From positions 133,265 through 197,264 of the forward strand of contig JAFGAR010000040.1 in the NCBI GenBank assembly GCA_016933575.1: DNA of 64,000 bases. Reading direction: 5' to 3'. Source of the stretch: Candidatus Thorarchaeota archaeon (GTDB lineage: Archaea; Asgardarchaeota; Thorarchaeia; Thorarchaeales; Thorarchaeaceae). Position numbers and translations under genes: made by a program. Below are positions 623 through 25,246 of this stretch, one piece after another. The notes below the pieces were generated by a model. The model made no database searches. It was not told the origin of the DNA and saw only the letters and a program-made list of their open reading frames with translations. Numbering within the stretch: position 1 is the first letter of the stretch; each line of letters opens with the position of its first letter.

Positions 623-1432
623 GTGGTAATTGTGAAACAAGATCGCGGTTTAGAATCCTTGAAAGTAATTCTCTTCATGACACTTATGCTTCTAATCGTA
701 GAGATATCACCAGTTATGTCGAAAATATTCACGGGTGACTTATACGCTCTCGTTGGAACACTTGTCTTTTTTGGTACCTTTTTCTTCATGTATATAGTAC
801 TGGAAATCTTCGTTCATTGGGACCAAACTTCCATCACAGAACTAGGTGTTGATTTTGATGATAAGACCATTTCACATATTACCATAGGAGCAATCGCTGG
901 AATAATCGCTGCTGTTGTTGTGATAGCATTTGCCTATTTCTTTGGGGGTCAATTGAGACCTGCTGATGAGATTACTACTGACTTACTTCTGAATGAAATT
1001 ATCATTACTACTCCAACAGCATTTTTCGAGGAACTAGCCCACCGGGGGTATATACTTCCCAAGATTGAGAATATACTTGGTCAAACAAACGCAATTCTGA
1101 TTAGTTCGATCTTTTTCTCATTACTTCATTTTAGCTGGTGGGCAACGCCAGGATTTCCGCTTTACCTTATTGTAATCTTTTCTTTCAATATATTTCTTGG
1201 TGGCGTGGTACTCTCACTCAGCTACTACTGGTCTGGGAAAAAACTCTGGGCGCCAATTTCATTTCACTTTGCATGGAATATGATTGCGTACATGATTTTT
1301 CCAAACTATCCACGAGTCCCAGTTCTTCAACCAGAAATCTTTCAAATTGAATGGGGAATTACTACGATTGTGGGTTTCTTTATTGGACTCTCAATTCTCT
1401 ATGCATTCTTAGCGAATAAAAGAAAAATGTAG
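623..1432 (+). CDS. CPBP/CAAX (Abi) intramembrane glutamic endopeptidase
   Basis: Multi-TM; EExxxR (FFEELAHRG), FSLLH and HFAWN motifs. Confidence 0.9.
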   Translation: MVIVKQDRGLESLKVILFMTLMLLIVEISPVMSKIFTGDLYALVGTLVFFGTFFFMYIVLEIFVHWDQTSITELGVDFDDKTISHITIGAIAGIIAAVVVIAFAYFFGGQLRPADEITTDLLLNEIIITTPTAFFEELAHRGYILPKIENILGQTNAILISSIFFSLLHFSWWATPGFPLYLIVIFSFNIFLGGVVLSLSYYWSGKKLWAPISFHFAWNMIAYMIFPNYPRVPVLQPEIFQIEWGITTIVGFFIGLSILYAFLANKRKM

Positions 1433-15752: not shown

Positions 15753-15948
15753 CATATTCTCATACAAAGATTGAATTTGCAAGGCCAATAACTTCGTTGT
15801 TCTATTTTTTTATTCGATAAACATCTAATCAATTATAACTAATGCTCACATATACACAACGCTTACAGGATACAAAATCCTTTTATTGACCACTAGTGAA
15901 AGTCCCGTATCCGAAATCGACTCGGAACGGAAAGGAGATAGAGAGAAT

Positions 15949-17802
15949 ATGCTTGATCGTAATAAGCGACTGGTAGCTATCACTCTCACCGTAGCATTTC
16001 TTTTTATGGCAATATCACCTGCAATATCAACTGCAGTAGATGTGCCTGCTGATTTGAACTACGGTCCATATGTAGATAAAATCGTCTACAAAGTGATATC
16101 AAACCAGGACCAAAGGATCCTCGCTCTCCAATCTGGCGAAATTGAAATGGACAATAGCTTCTTTGATCCAGTTCACCTTCCCACTTTGGATGCAGATCCT
16201 GATATAGACATTTTCAGCGCTATTAGAAACGGATATGGTCACATCACTATTAACTGTCGTGACTATCCATTGAACATTAGCGGTCTGAGAAGAGCCTTTG
16301 CATTTGCGTTTGACAAGACACGAGTCACCGCAGAGATCTTGGATGGCTTTTCGCAAGAGCACGACTCATTAGTGCCCTACCCGAATGGCTGGTGTGTTGA
16401 GGACCAATTCGGCTACCACTACTACACAGCTCAGGTAGCGATTGGCAACCAGATACTCGATGATCTTGGATTCGACATCGACCCGGTCTCCGGGTACAGA
16501 AACGCACCAAATGGTCAACCCTTCGACATTGAGATCGAATACGCATCATCATCAGCTGAGATTGCTGGTGGTACTGCTCAGATTGGTGTGGATGCTCTCA
16601 CAGCACTTCACATCAATGCTCGAACCCGTGCTGCAGACTTCAACGAGTACATCTCAAGGCTAGACAGCCATGGTAATTATGACATGGTCTTCTACGCTGT
16701 GAACTTCTACAGCAATGATGTTGACTGGCTTGCCTATGAGTACTGGTCCGAGTACGCAAATACTCCCTACCAGAACCCAACCAATTTCAGGAACTCAACA
16801 TATGACGGCTACAGACAGGATCTCCTCTACGGCACAACCTATGAAGAAATCTATGCTGCAGCGAAAGGCATGCAAGAGGTCCTCCAGTACAATGTCCCGA
16901 GACTTGTTTGCTACGAGAACACTTACATGCAAGGTTACAGGAACGATAAGTTCACTGGCCACGTTGAGGACCTTGGTCGGTACATCACTGGTCCATGGAC
17001 CATGCGAAAGATCCACAAGATCGATGGTACTTGGGGTGGTACACTTCCAATCGCAATCAGCGAGGAACCAGACAGCTTCAACATCTACGTAACCAACTCT
17101 GCTTACTCTGCAGCTATCTTGGAGAACCTCTGGCCATCACTATATGGCTTTGGTCCAGACCTTAATCCATATCCTGATCTTGCAGAGAACATGATAACTG
17201 AGACTCATGCAGAAAATGCGGCAGTTCCAGCAGGTCACACTCGATTTATCATTGATATTGTCCAGAATGCAACCTGGAGTGATGGTACACCGCTCACAGC
17301 GAATGATGTAGCATTCTCATTCACCTACGCATTTGAAAGCGGAGCGCTAGGTAACCCAGCTGGTACAGACATCGGTGACCTAGTCGGTGCAACTGCACCA
17401 ACTCCATACCGCTGTGTGATCGAGTTCAACACTGAGTCATACTGGCACTTCTCCAACTTCGCATACGATACTATTATTCCACAACATATCTTCAACGATG
17501 TCGATGGAATTGGTTATGCTGGTTGGAACACCTGGAACCCAGTGTTCGATCCTGACGTGCCCAACGTGAACTGTGGTCCATTCAAATTCACCGACTTTGA
17601 AGCTGGTGAATTTTATGAAGTTACATGGAACCCATTGTTCCACTATGCTCCACCAAACCACGACAACCCAACAACTGGCGGTGAAACTACCACAACAACC
17701 ACTGGTGGTGGCTTCAACACAATGTTGGCAATTGTTGCTGGTGCTGTTGGTGCAGCAGTAGTCATCCTCGTTGGTGGCTTTGTACTGCTCAGGCAGAAGT
17801 AG
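15949..17802 (+). CDS. oppA: Peptide ABC substrate-binding protein (family 5), circularly permuted, C-terminal TM anchor
   Basis: Signal peptide; LQSGEIEM, LRRAFAFAFDK, PDLAE, WSDGTPLTANDVAFSF, GPFKF; Thr/Gly linker plus TM. Confidence 0.9.
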   Translation: MLDRNKRLVAITLTVAFLFMAISPAISTAVDVPADLNYGPYVDKIVYKVISNQDQRILALQSGEIEMDNSFFDPVHLPTLDADPDIDIFSAIRNGYGHITINCRDYPLNISGLRRAFAFAFDKTRVTAEILDGFSQEHDSLVPYPNGWCVEDQFGYHYYTAQVAIGNQILDDLGFDIDPVSGYRNAPNGQPFDIEIEYASSSAEIAGGTAQIGVDALTALHINARTRAADFNEYISRLDSHGNYDMVFYAVNFYSNDVDWLAYEYWSEYANTPYQNPTNFRNSTYDGYRQDLLYGTTYEEIYAAAKGMQEVLQYNVPRLVCYENTYMQGYRNDKFTGHVEDLGRYITGPWTMRKIHKIDGTWGGTLPIAISEEPDSFNIYVTNSAYSAAILENLWPSLYGFGPDLNPYPDLAENMITETHAENAAVPAGHTRFIIDIVQNATWSDGTPLTANDVAFSFTYAFESGALGNPAGTDIGDLVGATAPTPYRCVIEFNTESYWHFSNFAYDTIIPQHIFNDVDGIGYAGWNTWNPVFDPDVPNVNCGPFKFTDFEAGEFYEVTWNPLFHYAPPNHDNPTTGGETTTTTTGGGFNTMLAIVAGAVGAAVVILVGGFVLLRQK

Positions 17803-21804: not shown

Positions 21805-22488
21805 TTGTTGAAGGCCTTTGTATTTGATATGGATGGAACAATAACCGAACTCTCACTCCCATTAGAAGCAATGCGGCAAGATACTAAAGATTACTACATC
21901 AATAAGGGTCTACCTAGTGAATTGCTCGAGGCTGCTGATGGTATCTCTAGTTCTACAGCGAAGGCAAGAGACTATTTTCTTTCAAAAGGCATCAACCTGA
22001 ATGAATGGAATCAAATGGAAACAGAAGTTGATATGATTCTCAGCCAGCATGAAGGATTTGCTGCACAGTCTGCTAGACTATTGGATGGTACTCTGGATGT
22101 GGTAAAGAAACTCAGGAAACTTGGTTTCAGTACTGCTATTCTTACAAATAATGGTAGGTCTTCTGTCGATAAGATTATGGAACAAATTCCATTAGTAGAT
22201 TATTTCGATATTATCCAGACCCGTCACGAATCACCTCGCCCCAAGCCTTATCCAGATGGCCTTCTGAAAATAGTTTCTGATTTGGGTCTTAACAAGAATG
22301 AAATCGTCTATGTTGGGGATGCATTGATAGATGCAACAGCTGCAAAACGGGCTGGTATAGAATTCTGGGGTGTAGCAACCGGAGAAACACCTGCGCAGGC
22401 TTTGGTCAAAGCTGGAGCCTCCAAGGTATTTCCATCTCTCAATGGTATCTTAGAAGAGTCAACTTCTAGAATGCAAAAGTATGATTGA
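21805..22488 (+). CDS. HAD-family phosphatase (phosphoglycolate phosphatase-like)
   Basis: FDMDGT, TNN, KPYP, VGD...D. Confidence 0.9.
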   Translation: MLKAFVFDMDGTITELSLPLEAMRQDTKDYYINKGLPSELLEAADGISSSTAKARDYFLSKGINLNEWNQMETEVDMILSQHEGFAAQSARLLDGTLDVVKKLRKLGFSTAILTNNGRSSVDKIMEQIPLVDYFDIIQTRHESPRPKPYPDGLLKIVSDLGLNKNEIVYVGDALIDATAAKRAGIEFWGVATGETPAQALVKAGASKVFPSLNGILEESTSRMQKYD

Positions 22489-22508
22489 ATCCCTTGTCCA
22501 TTTGTTAA

Positions 22509-22542
22509 GTCAGCAAAAACGTTGCTGACTTATTGTTCTTTC
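22509..22542 (+). terminator. Hairpin terminator
   Basis: GTCAGCAA-AAACG-TTGCTGAC then TTATTGTTCTTT. Confidence 0.55.
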
Positions 22543-22702
22543 GCTATCTAGTAAGAATCAACACGGATTTGTTGCATCTGTCATCTTCATTGACTGATAT
22601 CCGTAACCGGCTTGTGGCCTTGTTAGAATGCAACTCTGGAGAGCTATCTTGATGAATACTATCTGACTGAAGGTTATATACGGTTTCGCGTCTATTTCTA
22701 TT

Positions 22703-23152
22703 GTGACAGGCAGTATTTCAATATTCGAAGAAGTAAGCACGCAACTTGAGGTCAACGACCAAATGACAATTGATGAGGGAACATACTTAGTATTGCGTTC
22801 AGCATCTGGAGCATTCACTTGTAGATATCCTCCTGTGCCTCGTATTTGGAACTCAGTTGACCGACCACATGTTGCTCTTCTTCTGCCTGATACTAAAGGT
22901 ATCTTCACAGTATTTCTCTCGCAGCCTGAACATAGTGAATTTCCACGAAGCAAGAAACTTGATACTGTAGATCTCAATACACTACCATCAAAATCTATCA
23001 TTGAAATCCGGCATAATAATGCACACTATGCCTATTATCGTCGGGATAACGGTTCTTGGACAAAAGTCGCTGAGGCTAATGATCCATTCGTTGTTGAAGT
23101 ATTTTCTCATGGTTATGCTCCAATTGTAATGAATCTTATTCCCACGATTTGA
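22703..23152 (+). CDS. Hypothetical protein
   Basis: 149-aa ORF, TTATATA box about 25 nt upstream. Confidence 0.65.
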   Translation: MTGSISIFEEVSTQLEVNDQMTIDEGTYLVLRSASGAFTCRYPPVPRIWNSVDRPHVALLLPDTKGIFTVFLSQPEHSEFPRSKKLDTVDLNTLPSKSIIEIRHNNAHYAYYRRDNGSWTKVAEANDPFVVEVFSHGYAPIVMNLIPTI

Positions 23153-23222
23153 ATCAGCTACTAGTTTATCAATTCTAGAAGAAGCAAATCAATATTGGGT
23201 GTGGTAGCGGGATAATTTTGAA

Positions 23223-23321
23223 GGTGTGAGGAGCGCAAGGAAAAAAAGATTGCATGGTTGTTTGCTTGAGGAGAGGATGTGTGTTAGGATTTCAGGAGGG
23301 AGAAATGCGCTCCTCAACATC
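23223..23321 (-). ncRNA. Candidate sRNA 1: terminal stem with CU-rich loop
   Basis: 11-bp perfect arms 23227-23237/23306-23316; minus-strand loop UUUCUCCCUCC...CCUCUCCUC; TTTTTATATG about 26 nt upstream. Confidence 0.5.
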
Positions 23322-23522
23322 TATCAATATTATTTTACTTAATTTACATATAAAAATTATATGATTTATGAAATCACCAATTGATTTTACACCTTGCAAG
23401 ATTTTCATCTTCATCAACTAATTTGGCGTGGAAACCACTGATCACACCATAATTTCTCTAGTAATAATATTCGCAATCCGACATTTGCTTAAATGTATTC
23501 ATAACTATACTCTATTAGAATT

Positions 23523-23600
23523 AGGGGGCCTTTCTCTCTCAGAAGCGTTTCTCTCCTTCCATGTTCTCTTTGGGCCCCCTCTCTCTCAACACTATTTTTT
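23523..23600 (+). ncRNA. Candidate sRNA 2: terminal stem with CU-rich loop
   Basis: AGGGGGCC/GGCCCCCT stem; loop UUUCUCUCUC...UUUCUCUCCUUCC; TTAAAT at 23489; T6 at end. Confidence 0.5.
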
Positions 23601-23727
23601 CAGAGATCATCATGTTGATATCGAAATATCATTCTTCTCACGATACTCATGTTCTCGTGCCAATAATTGAATAATAGTATAGGACAGTTACACTTATATC
23701 CTAATATGAACTATTATAATATGGACT

Positions 23728-23840
23728 GGGGGTCCGAAACGACCTTCACAAATCTGTTCAATCTCCTCTCCTCTCTCTCCCTAACGTCCGACCGAACCGC
23801 GAATTCTCGTTTGTTCTCAGGACCCCCTCTCTCCTCCTTC
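23728..23840 (+). ncRNA. Candidate sRNA 3: terminal stem with CU-rich loop
   Basis: GGGGGTCC/GGACCCCC stem; loop CUCCUCUCCUCUCUCUCCC; CTTATA at 23693. Confidence 0.5.
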
Positions 23841-23901
23841 TAATGTGTGACATACAATTATTCAACAGCCAGCAAGTTTTAAAGGAGTTACTTCTGGTGC
23901 C

Positions 23902-24414
23902 ATGCCAAGGCGAGAAACCGTGTCTGTGGCAAAGAAAGCAATTGATAGCTCACTTCGACGAATTCTTAATTACACAGCAGAAATTATCATGTCCATCATT
24001 TTACTAGTAATACTCTGCATACCCCTAATGTTCACTATTCCCATGTGGTTTCAATATGTCGTGCTTGGCGCACCACGGTTTAATTTGTCACTTGATCCTG
24101 TGATATGGTTTGGTATGGATGGAGCACTCTGGGTAACACTATTTCTTGGTCTCGTGAGTTTCGGAATATCATACGTTTACATTCTCAAGATGCACCCTGG
24201 TATCTCTTCAGCTAGTGATAAGGTATCTGATGCCGAGTTATCTCTAGAAGCGGATGAGGATAGCCTTGAAGAAATCGAAGATGAAGATATCCCATCAGAA
24301 GAACTGATAGAAGATGAAGATATTCCACTTGAAGACCAAGAGGATGAAGATACGCCTGTTTCAGACATAGATGAAGAAATCCTTGAAGAAGATGAAACCG
24401 AGGACGAAGAATAA
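23902..24414 (+). CDS. Two-TM protein with long acidic repeat tail
   Basis: Hydrophobic N-half; three EE(x)IEDEDIP-like repeats. Confidence 0.75.
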   Translation: MPRRETVSVAKKAIDSSLRRILNYTAEIIMSIILLVILCIPLMFTIPMWFQYVVLGAPRFNLSLDPVIWFGMDGALWVTLFLGLVSFGISYVYILKMHPGISSASDKVSDAELSLEADEDSLEEIEDEDIPSEELIEDEDIPLEDQEDEDTPVSDIDEEILEEDETEDEE

Positions 24415-24430
24415 TTCTTCGTCTCTGCTT

Positions 24431-25246
24431 CTATTTCTTTTCCAATTTTATTTTAGTTGATAAATTATCAACAAGAGCTGAAAATGATTTTGAAACTATA
24501 GACTCTGGTTCTTCCATGACAAATGGAGTGCCTTCATCACTAAGCGTAATCACTCTTGGGTCAAGTGGCAATGTGCCAAGATGTTCTATTCCATATTCTT
24601 CAGAAGCTTTCTTAGCTGCACCTTCGCCGAAGATTTTGTAAGATTCGCCACATTTTGGGCAGACAAATTCAGCCATGTTTTCTATGATACCTAAGACTGG
24701 AACTCCCATCTTTTCAACAAGTTGAATGGCTCTTCTTGCATCTAAAACAGCTACTTCTTGAGGGGTTGATACGATGATAACGCCATCAATATCTGGGATT
24801 GATTGTAGAATACTTAGAATTTCGTCTCCAGTTCCAGGCGGAAGGTCGACAACAAGCATATCTAGTTCTCCCCACTTGACATTGGCCAAGAATTGACTAA
24901 TAGCTTTTGCTACCAATGGGCCTCTCCAGGCTACTGCGTCATCATCCTTTCGTAATAGAAATGCCATACTCATGACTTTCACATCAAGAGGTCCGAGGAT
25001 TGGATCAATAAAGTCCCCCTCTGCAGTTGGATGTTGTCCTTCTAATCCGAGTAATTTGGGTACGTTAGGACCGTAGATATCGACGTCCAGTATTCCCGAT
25101 GAATATCCTCGCATCGCAAATGATATAGCAAGATTGGTTGCAACAGTTGTTTTGCCAACGCCACCTTTACCTGATAAAACAACTATCTTATGTTTGATAG
25201 ATTTCATATTCTCTGCGACTTCTGGAGGAACTAATGATTTTGCCAT
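24431..25246 (-). CDS. mrp: Mrp/Nbp35/ApbC Fe-S cluster carrier ATPase
   Basis: SGKGGVGKT, DVDIYGP, WRGP, DLPPGTGD, ENM...CPKC. Confidence 0.95.
   Translation of the reverse strand: MAKSLVPPEVAENMKSIKHKIVVLSGKGGVGKTTVATNLAISFAMRGYSSGILDVDIYGPNVPKLLGLEGQHPTAEGDFIDPILGPLDVKVMSMAFLLRKDDDAVAWRGPLVAKAISQFLANVKWGELDMLVVDLPPGTGDEILSILQSIPDIDGVIIVSTPQEVAVLDARRAIQLVEKMGVPVLGIIENMAEFVCPKCGESYKIFGEGAAKKASEEYGIEHLGTLPLDPRVITLSDEGTPFVMEEPESIVSKSFSALVDNLSTKIKLEKK

Follow-up and report, generated by a model that had tools for sequence, protein, structure and literature searches.

The locus and its three elements

The DNA analysed here, referred to as the window, is a stretch of 64,000 nucleotides corresponding to contig C5:133265-197264 of an archaeal MAG of 3.47 Mb that is 85% complete. 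Within it, a gap of 749 nt without a conserved ORF extends from the stop codon of a 149-aa gene (23152) to the start of a gene for a 170-aa membrane protein (23902). The original prediction had placed three elements in this gap, one on the minus strand and two on the plus strand, each with its ends paired in a GC-rich stem of 8-11 bp and with a TATA-like box upstream. All three elements (designated E1, E2, and E3) were recovered where they had been placed, with stems of 11 nt, 9 bp, and 8 bp, respectively, and with boxes about 26 nt from the predicted starts. The gap had also been described as lacking a credible ORF; this holds in that no ORF in it is conserved, and ORFs of 41-80 aa do lie inside. 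The features of the locus are listed below.

22703-23152: flanking gene encoding a 149-aa protein without a Pfam match
23210-23325, minus strand: E1, candidate small RNA of about 115 nt; 5' arm 23306-23316, 3' arm 23227-23237
23347-23356, minus strand: E1 promoter, TATA box TTTTTATATG on the minus strand; genus consensus ACAATTMTTATATAC
23453-23495, plus strand: conserved block upstream of E2 and TATA box (CTTAAATG at 23488-23495)
23518-23600, plus strand: E2, candidate small RNA of about 80 nt; 9-bp stem, 23523-23531 with 23572-23580
23693-23700, plus strand: E3 promoter, TATA box CTTATATC
23723-23846, plus strand: E3, candidate small RNA of about 120 nt; 8-bp stem, GGGGGUCC (23728-23735) with GGACCCCC (23820-23827)
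23902-24414, plus strand (as E3): flanking gene encoding a 170-aa membrane protein without a Pfam match

The arms of E1 form a perfect 11-nt inverted repeat enclosing a CU-rich loop (23238-23305); a U7 tract precedes the 3' arm, which is followed by the 3' tail ACACCUUCAAA. The loop of E2 carries the motifs UCUCUCUCAGAAG and UCCAUGUUCUCU, and its tail reads CUCUCUC before a T6 terminator at 23595-23600. In E3 the CU-rich loop contains an optional internal hairpin, and the 3' tail CUCUCUCCUCCUUCU includes CCUCC. Two resemblances pointed out earlier are present, namely the string GGGGG(U)CC...GG(A)CCCCCUCUCUC shared by E2 and E3 and the similar loop starts of E1 and E2 (UUUCUCCCUCCUGAA versus UUUCUCUCUCAGAA). 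The claim that the elements bear CUCC or anti-Shine-Dalgarno (anti-SD) tracts needs one correction: exact CCUCC is found in the E1 loop (23295-23299, minus strand) and in the E3 3' tail (23833-23837), its only two occurrences in this genome's copies, and this genome's E2 lacks it; the genus-consensus E2 has CCUCC.

The TATA boxes place the predicted starts 4-9 nt before each 5' arm, and the spacing from box to arm is almost fixed in the alignments of 13-22 homologues per element. The E1 box, which precedes the predicted start by about 26 nt, is nearly invariant in 13 homologues, and CTTATAT in the E3 box is invariant in the genus (19 homologues). For E2, the genus consensus of the promoter is TAGTAA..CCGCAATCTGACATTTGCTTAAATAT, with the TATA box appearing as GACATTTGCTTAAATAT in homologue alignments; this block is kept across 22 homologues and the sequence farther upstream is not. 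The portion before the E2 TATA box (23453-23487, TAGTAA...CCGCAATCYGACATTTGC) extends about 45 nt past the box, contains an imperfect palindrome (GCAA..TTGC), and is probably a transcription-factor site. A regulon search revealed no second copy of any of the three promoter blocks in the genome. An 'Omnitrophota' contig matching the E2 promoter string was rejected as a chance match to a bacterial promoter.

RNA folding of the CU-rich strand gave the end-to-end stem as the dominant structure, with the loop mostly open. Fold z-scores for this strand were -5.0 for E1, -3.2 for E2, and -1.65 for E3, the last of which means that the E3 fold is not significant by itself. The 3.47-Mb genome was also scanned with a descriptor consisting of a perfect 8-bp GC-rich stem and a loop of 30-140 nt with at least 62% pyrimidine and a CUCC sequence. 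Nine matches were obtained, three of them being E1, E2, and E3 inside 750 nt; the cluster is therefore not a chance product of composition. The same scan returned a stem-closed element at 737-803 (minus strand) of contig C207 of this assembly (G000), with a 9-bp stem (GGGGGUGAG...CUCACCCCC) and a partly pyrimidine-rich loop. It lies on a small GC-rich contig, has no visible TATA box, and may be contamination or an unrelated element.

Conservation, covariation, and gene status

A DNA search of 40 relatives recovered all three blocks at 70-83% identity in genomes of the same genus, and the trio occupies the same spot in this genus, to which Thorarchaeota SMTZ1-45 belongs, as well as in further genera of the family. 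Outside the conserved blocks, the flanks are diverged and unalignable, with indels. Loop motifs are nearly invariant, comprising CUCCCUCCUGAAAU and AUCCUCUCCUCCUCAAGCAACCAUGC in E1, the two motifs of E2 given above, and CAUCAUGAAUaCUGUCACUCCCUCC in E3. Covariance models detected E1 in 17 of 27 genus genomes and in seven other genera, E2 in all eight genus genomes and 16 of the 26 family genomes of a phylum-wide sample, and E3 in 24 of 27 genus genomes at E<=1e-5, with more diverged copies of E3 at the same spot in other genera. Matches of the E2 model beyond the family were taken as false, since the stem was missing in most of them and the flanking genes were missing from the roughly 2-kb locus in all. 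About 10 of the 27 genus genomes, a subclade (G001, G012, G017, and others) that retains E2 and E3, lack E1 or carry it in degraded form. In genome G010, E1 is inverted and has a wholly different stem (GGGGCGCGGGAGG with CCUCCUGUGUCCCC).

The models also cross-match, that of E2 finding E3 and that of E3 finding the E2 and E1 loci, at about 17-33 bits, scores that low-complexity composition may inflate. The earlier suggestion that the elements are paralogous is thus partly borne out: common descent or a shared design of E1, E2, and E3 is plausible from sequence comparison.

Gene order across the genus is HAD hydrolase, 149-aa gene, E1 (opposite strand), E2, E3, 170-aa gene, and Mrp/NUBPL ATPase. 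Eight loci belonging to other genera of the family show this order in full or in part, and some of these loci lack the 149-aa gene and E1. In the loci compared, the trio always sits between the orthologues of the two flanking genes (149 aa and 170 aa); the surrounding genes are housekeeping or uncharacterised ones, and none linked to the locus is a candidate partner. There are 171 homologues of the 149-aa protein, and all those with an organism name are from Thorarchaeota or Promethearchaeota. Its true start is probably M21, which would give a protein of 129 aa, and its predicted fold was unusable (pLDDT 41). In the 170-aa protein, transmembrane segments are accompanied by a very acidic tail at the C-terminus. 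The gaps between E1, E2, and E3 are an insertion hot spot in the loci of relatives L010, L011, L012, L015, L022, and L026-L028, where the inserted genes encode an MFS transporter, a radical SAM protein, an FKBP, a DUF6054 protein, and several proteins of 315-526 aa without a Pfam match.

This arrangement bears on an improbable reading in which E3, and perhaps E2 by read-through, would be the 5' leader of the membrane-protein gene at 23902-24414, its CU tracts masking that gene's own Shine-Dalgarno (SD) sequence (AAGGAG at about 23882). In this genome E3 ends 57 nt before the gene, on the same strand and with no T5 terminator between them, and the same gene lies downstream of E3 in all relatives checked. 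However, the spacing between E3 and the gene varies between 57 and about 600 nt from one genome to another, with an intervening ORF in some, most relatives have a T5 run 15-20 nt past the stem, and E1 has the same design on the opposite strand. The genes inserted between the elements, together with the variable distance from E3 to the gene, point to three separate transcription units and not to one leader.

The stems show covariation across the relatives. In E1, compensatory (two-sided) changes were found in eight of 12 pairs, and 95% of cells were paired; this covariation was reached by none of 500 shuffles, and when the partner was slid by 1-3 columns the signal fell to about zero. In E2, two-sided changes affected four of 10 pairs (for example, GGGGGCC/GGCCCCC versus GGGAGCC/GGCUCCC), the slid controls being less clean here owing to the G and C runs. 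The E3 stem is mostly invariant, with U-A alternating with U-G. Stem sequences in other genera differ yet still pair, as in E3 (GGGUGACCC with GGGUCACCC), and E1 there has added internal hairpins whose sequences are swapped between species with pairing retained. Counts of G-U versus A-C in the stems were 9:1, 48:10, and 8:0. An excess of G-U over A-C is expected only on the strand that acts as RNA and so favours the CU-rich strand, in agreement with the side on which the TATA boxes lie. These observations also weigh on the proposal that the elements are not RNA genes and that the conserved inverted repeats act at the DNA level, as protein-binding sites or mobile-element remnants. Such a role is very improbable given that G-U wobbles are tolerated on one strand only, the distance from TATA box to stem is fixed, stems of different sequence in other genera still pair, and the elements are single copy without target-site duplications or repeats.

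Other identities were examined in turn. No match was obtained with Rfam 15 at gathering thresholds in the 64-kb window, and relaxing the cutoff to E<=10 for positions 23100-23950 yielded six chance-level matches only, the best of which reached 19.7 bits where the threshold is 80. Small-protein genes were rejected, as no in-frame ORF of at least 12 aa is common to the 27, 16, and 19 distinct homologues, and indel lengths within the elements are not divisible by three. Remnants of MITEs or other repeats, which had been raised as an alternative, were likewise rejected. The covariance models match only this locus in the genome, there are no flanking direct repeats or target-site duplications, and the elements are not MITEs because they are single copy and fixed in position across the family. 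They are not C/D box sRNAs because a C box (RUGAUGA) is absent from E1, E2, and E3; the sole Rfam C/D match scored 11.8 bits (E=8) and was on the opposite strand.

A resemblance to Y RNAs lies in the pairing of the 5' and 3' ends into a terminal helix and in the pyrimidine-rich internal loop. Vertebrate Y RNAs start with GGUCCGA, a string that the 5' end of E3 resembles, and most E3 copies in the genus start with GGGGGUCCGAA. Eukaryotic and bacterial Y RNAs bind Ro60. The TROVE/Ro60 gene is, however, absent from this genome and from all 28 genus genomes, under a search that matched the positive-control genomes, and there is no match to Y_RNA or any other Rfam model even at E<=10. The missing Ro60 gene effectively refutes a Y-RNA-like identity, which is given almost no weight here.

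The absence of a conserved ORF, of repeat copies, and of Rfam matches indicates that E1, E2, and E3 are very probably genuine small RNA genes, absent from existing catalogues and confined to a single Asgard family, a judgement based on comparative sequence analysis. Contigs of two metatranscriptome runs from the same study matched nothing at 22300-24700, and the DNA run that may be the source likewise gave no match there; these outcomes do not bear on expression either way. The original prediction of undescribed RNAs is upheld by the lack of Rfam matches and conserved ORFs, by the covarying stems and single-copy state, and by the promoters and loops conserved at the same spot in genus and family. 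The genes are new, and their general kind (CU-rich, anti-SD-like) is already known.

Target searches and possible modes of action

The mode of action considered best supported, and held tentatively as plausible, is a trans-acting anti-SD mechanism. The comparisons above show gene status, strand, stem, and conservation; that the genes are transcribed, which mRNAs they target, and how translation responds is what we infer. Three independent genes, each with its own archaeal TATA promoter, would give rise to structured noncoding RNAs of about 80-120 nt. A GC-rich helix would join the 5' and 3' ends and hold open a conserved, largely unpaired pyrimidine-rich loop, with a CU-rich 3' tail following. 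The exposed CU tracts, including CCUCCU, would pair through short seeds with purine-rich SD regions of mRNAs and thereby dampen or adjust the initiation of translation. Protection of the RNA ends would fall to the terminal helix. The U-tracts preceding the 3' arm in E1 and E3 may be where an Sm-like (SmAP) protein is recruited; the genome has three LSM-domain genes. When this mechanism is weighed together with gene status as one combined best explanation, its probability is put a little short of even.

The setting is consistent with such a role. SD usage in the genome centres on GGAGG, often as GGAGGUGA, with a peak at -16 to -12 from start codons. The rRNA genes are absent from the MAG assembly and the 16S rRNA of one relative was therefore used; its 3' end reads GGAUCACCUCCU, which includes CCUCCU. 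The same CCUCCU occurs in the genus-consensus loops of E1 and E2, and in E3 the loop has CCUCC and the 3' tail CCUCCU. The elements thus share with the anti-SD class predicted, largely unpaired CU-rich or CCUCC tracts in an SD-using organism; conserved target leaders with complementarity above composition, also a feature of that class, were not found.

Loops were compared with 3336 start regions by duplex energy and by contiguous matches. On neither measure did the real loops outperform shuffled ones; their complementarity to these regions is accordingly a matter of composition. The earlier proposal that the RNAs act in trans on SD leaders gained no support from these comparisons, the oppA leader cited for it included, and the best candidates are not conserved. 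An extended complementary site was found neither in this genome nor recurring in the genus. Individual candidates were rejected as follows. A gene on contig C142 with a 13-nt perfect match to an E1 motif is absent from the other 27 genus genomes. A gene at C5:43241 with a 13-nt match to E2 (CCAUGUUCUCU) spanning its start codon has a leader that is not conserved in 21 orthologues. The oppA leader ranked 83 of 3336 by energy with E2 and 72 with E3, against 32-1066 for shuffles. In the histone start region only an 8-nt string, AGGAGGAG, matches the loops, and it is an extended SD. With 16S rRNA as partner, the best run was 13 nt including two G-U pairs, about the chance level, and is absent from this genome's E3. 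With no target standing out in these searches, the anti-SD idea is one drawn from composition and analogy.

The leader of the oppA-like gene (gene 15949-17802, leader 15899-15951) was found to be unusual in its own right. Its sequence, AUCCGAAUUCGACUCGGAAcGGAAAGGAGAUAGAGAGAAyAUG, is almost invariant in the orthologues near this locus in 11 other genus genomes, whereas variation is seen both upstream of the leader and in the first codons. It consists of a small hairpin (CCGA/UCGG) and a 19-nt stretch, purine except for one U, that runs into the start codon. It is possibly a cis-regulatory leader, and no other gene of the genome carries it.

The main rival to the anti-SD mechanism, unlikely in itself, is that the RNAs bind protein, as a sponge or RNP scaffold, through their invariant loop motifs and U-tracts. 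Under this explanation they would titrate or carry a protein without pairing to mRNA, the candidates being SmAP/Lsm, a KH-type protein, or a factor specific for the 3' end of 16S rRNA. Conservation of the loops, non-CU segments included, goes far beyond what a short degenerate seed needs, and the strictly conserved segments CAGAAG, CCAUGUU, and AAGCAACCAUGC are unexplained by SD pairing. These segments and the U-tracts (U5-U7 before the 3' arm in E1 and E3) fit protein binding about as well as an anti-SD role. The three LSM genes and the failure of the target searches to yield a specific or conserved RNA target point the same way, and three similar adjacent genes recall multi-site sponge RNAs, of which the CsrB/RsmZ type is an example. 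Against protein binding, the locus has no linked partner gene (the genes inserted in relatives are unrelated transporters and enzymes), no RRM protein and no Ro60/TROVE was found, and the unusable fold of the flanking 149-aa protein offers no partner. A further, doubtful reading holds that the RNAs imitate the 3' end of 16S rRNA, with a helix that precedes or encloses single-stranded CCUCCU-type sequence, and would either throttle SD-dependent initiation globally or act as decoys for a factor recognising the 16S tail.

Relation to known small RNAs and significance

The closest parallel in layout is provided by the cuckoo/CcsR sRNAs (RSs0680, alpha-r14; Rfam RF02344) of Alphaproteobacteria, which expose the CU-rich anti-SD-like motif CCUCCUCCC and have been proposed to act as anti-SD single strands toward purine-rich leaders, the choice between global repression and specific ribosome-binding sites being undecided (PMC4615179). 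In both cases several similar small RNAs are clustered in a conserved intergenic spot beside a gene of unassigned function, which is an analogy of layout only, and both have a CU-rich anti-SD-like motif, with stems that vary by compensatory mutation around a constant loop motif. In contrast, the bacterial cuckoo/CcsR RNAs consist of 2-4 tandem hairpins with CCUCCUCCC in small apical loops, whereas the Thorarchaeota RNAs are archaeal, each having a TATA promoter to itself and presenting the tracts in a single large loop that an end-to-end helix closes. The motif CCUCCUCCC is absent from the window copies of E1-E3, and none matches RF02344.

In AbcR1/2 and in the Firmicutes sRNAs with C-rich seeds (RsaE/RoxS type), unpaired C/U-rich seeds pair with the G-rich SD regions of many mRNAs. 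E1-E3 have C/U-rich tracts like these that are predicted to be unpaired, but the former are bacterial, have other folds, and have experimentally defined targets, whereas no target of E1-E3 rose above shuffled controls. Among archaea, sRNA162, sRNA41, and sRNA154 of Methanosarcina mazei are independently transcribed intergenic sRNAs that act on the 5' regions of mRNAs and mask ribosome-binding sites. They share with E1-E3 an archaeal origin and, as predicted here, independent transcription; they differ in having specific extended target complementarity, none of which was found for E1-E3, and there is no similarity in sequence or structure.

Asgard archaea are the closest prokaryotic relatives of eukaryotes, and no described regulatory small RNA of these archaea was found in the literature searched. 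E1-E3 represent three well-supported candidate genes, with clear promoters, covarying stems, and conservation at the same spot across the family. Should they bind protein, they would point to an undescribed RNP. Whichever mode of action applies, the covariance models can be used for annotating about 90 genomes of the family. If the RNAs act on SD sites, they would represent a bacterial-style anti-SD riboregulation that arose independently in an Asgard lineage, and if they mimic the 16S rRNA 3' end they would form a family-wide layer of translational control in Asgard archaea without a described archaeal counterpart.
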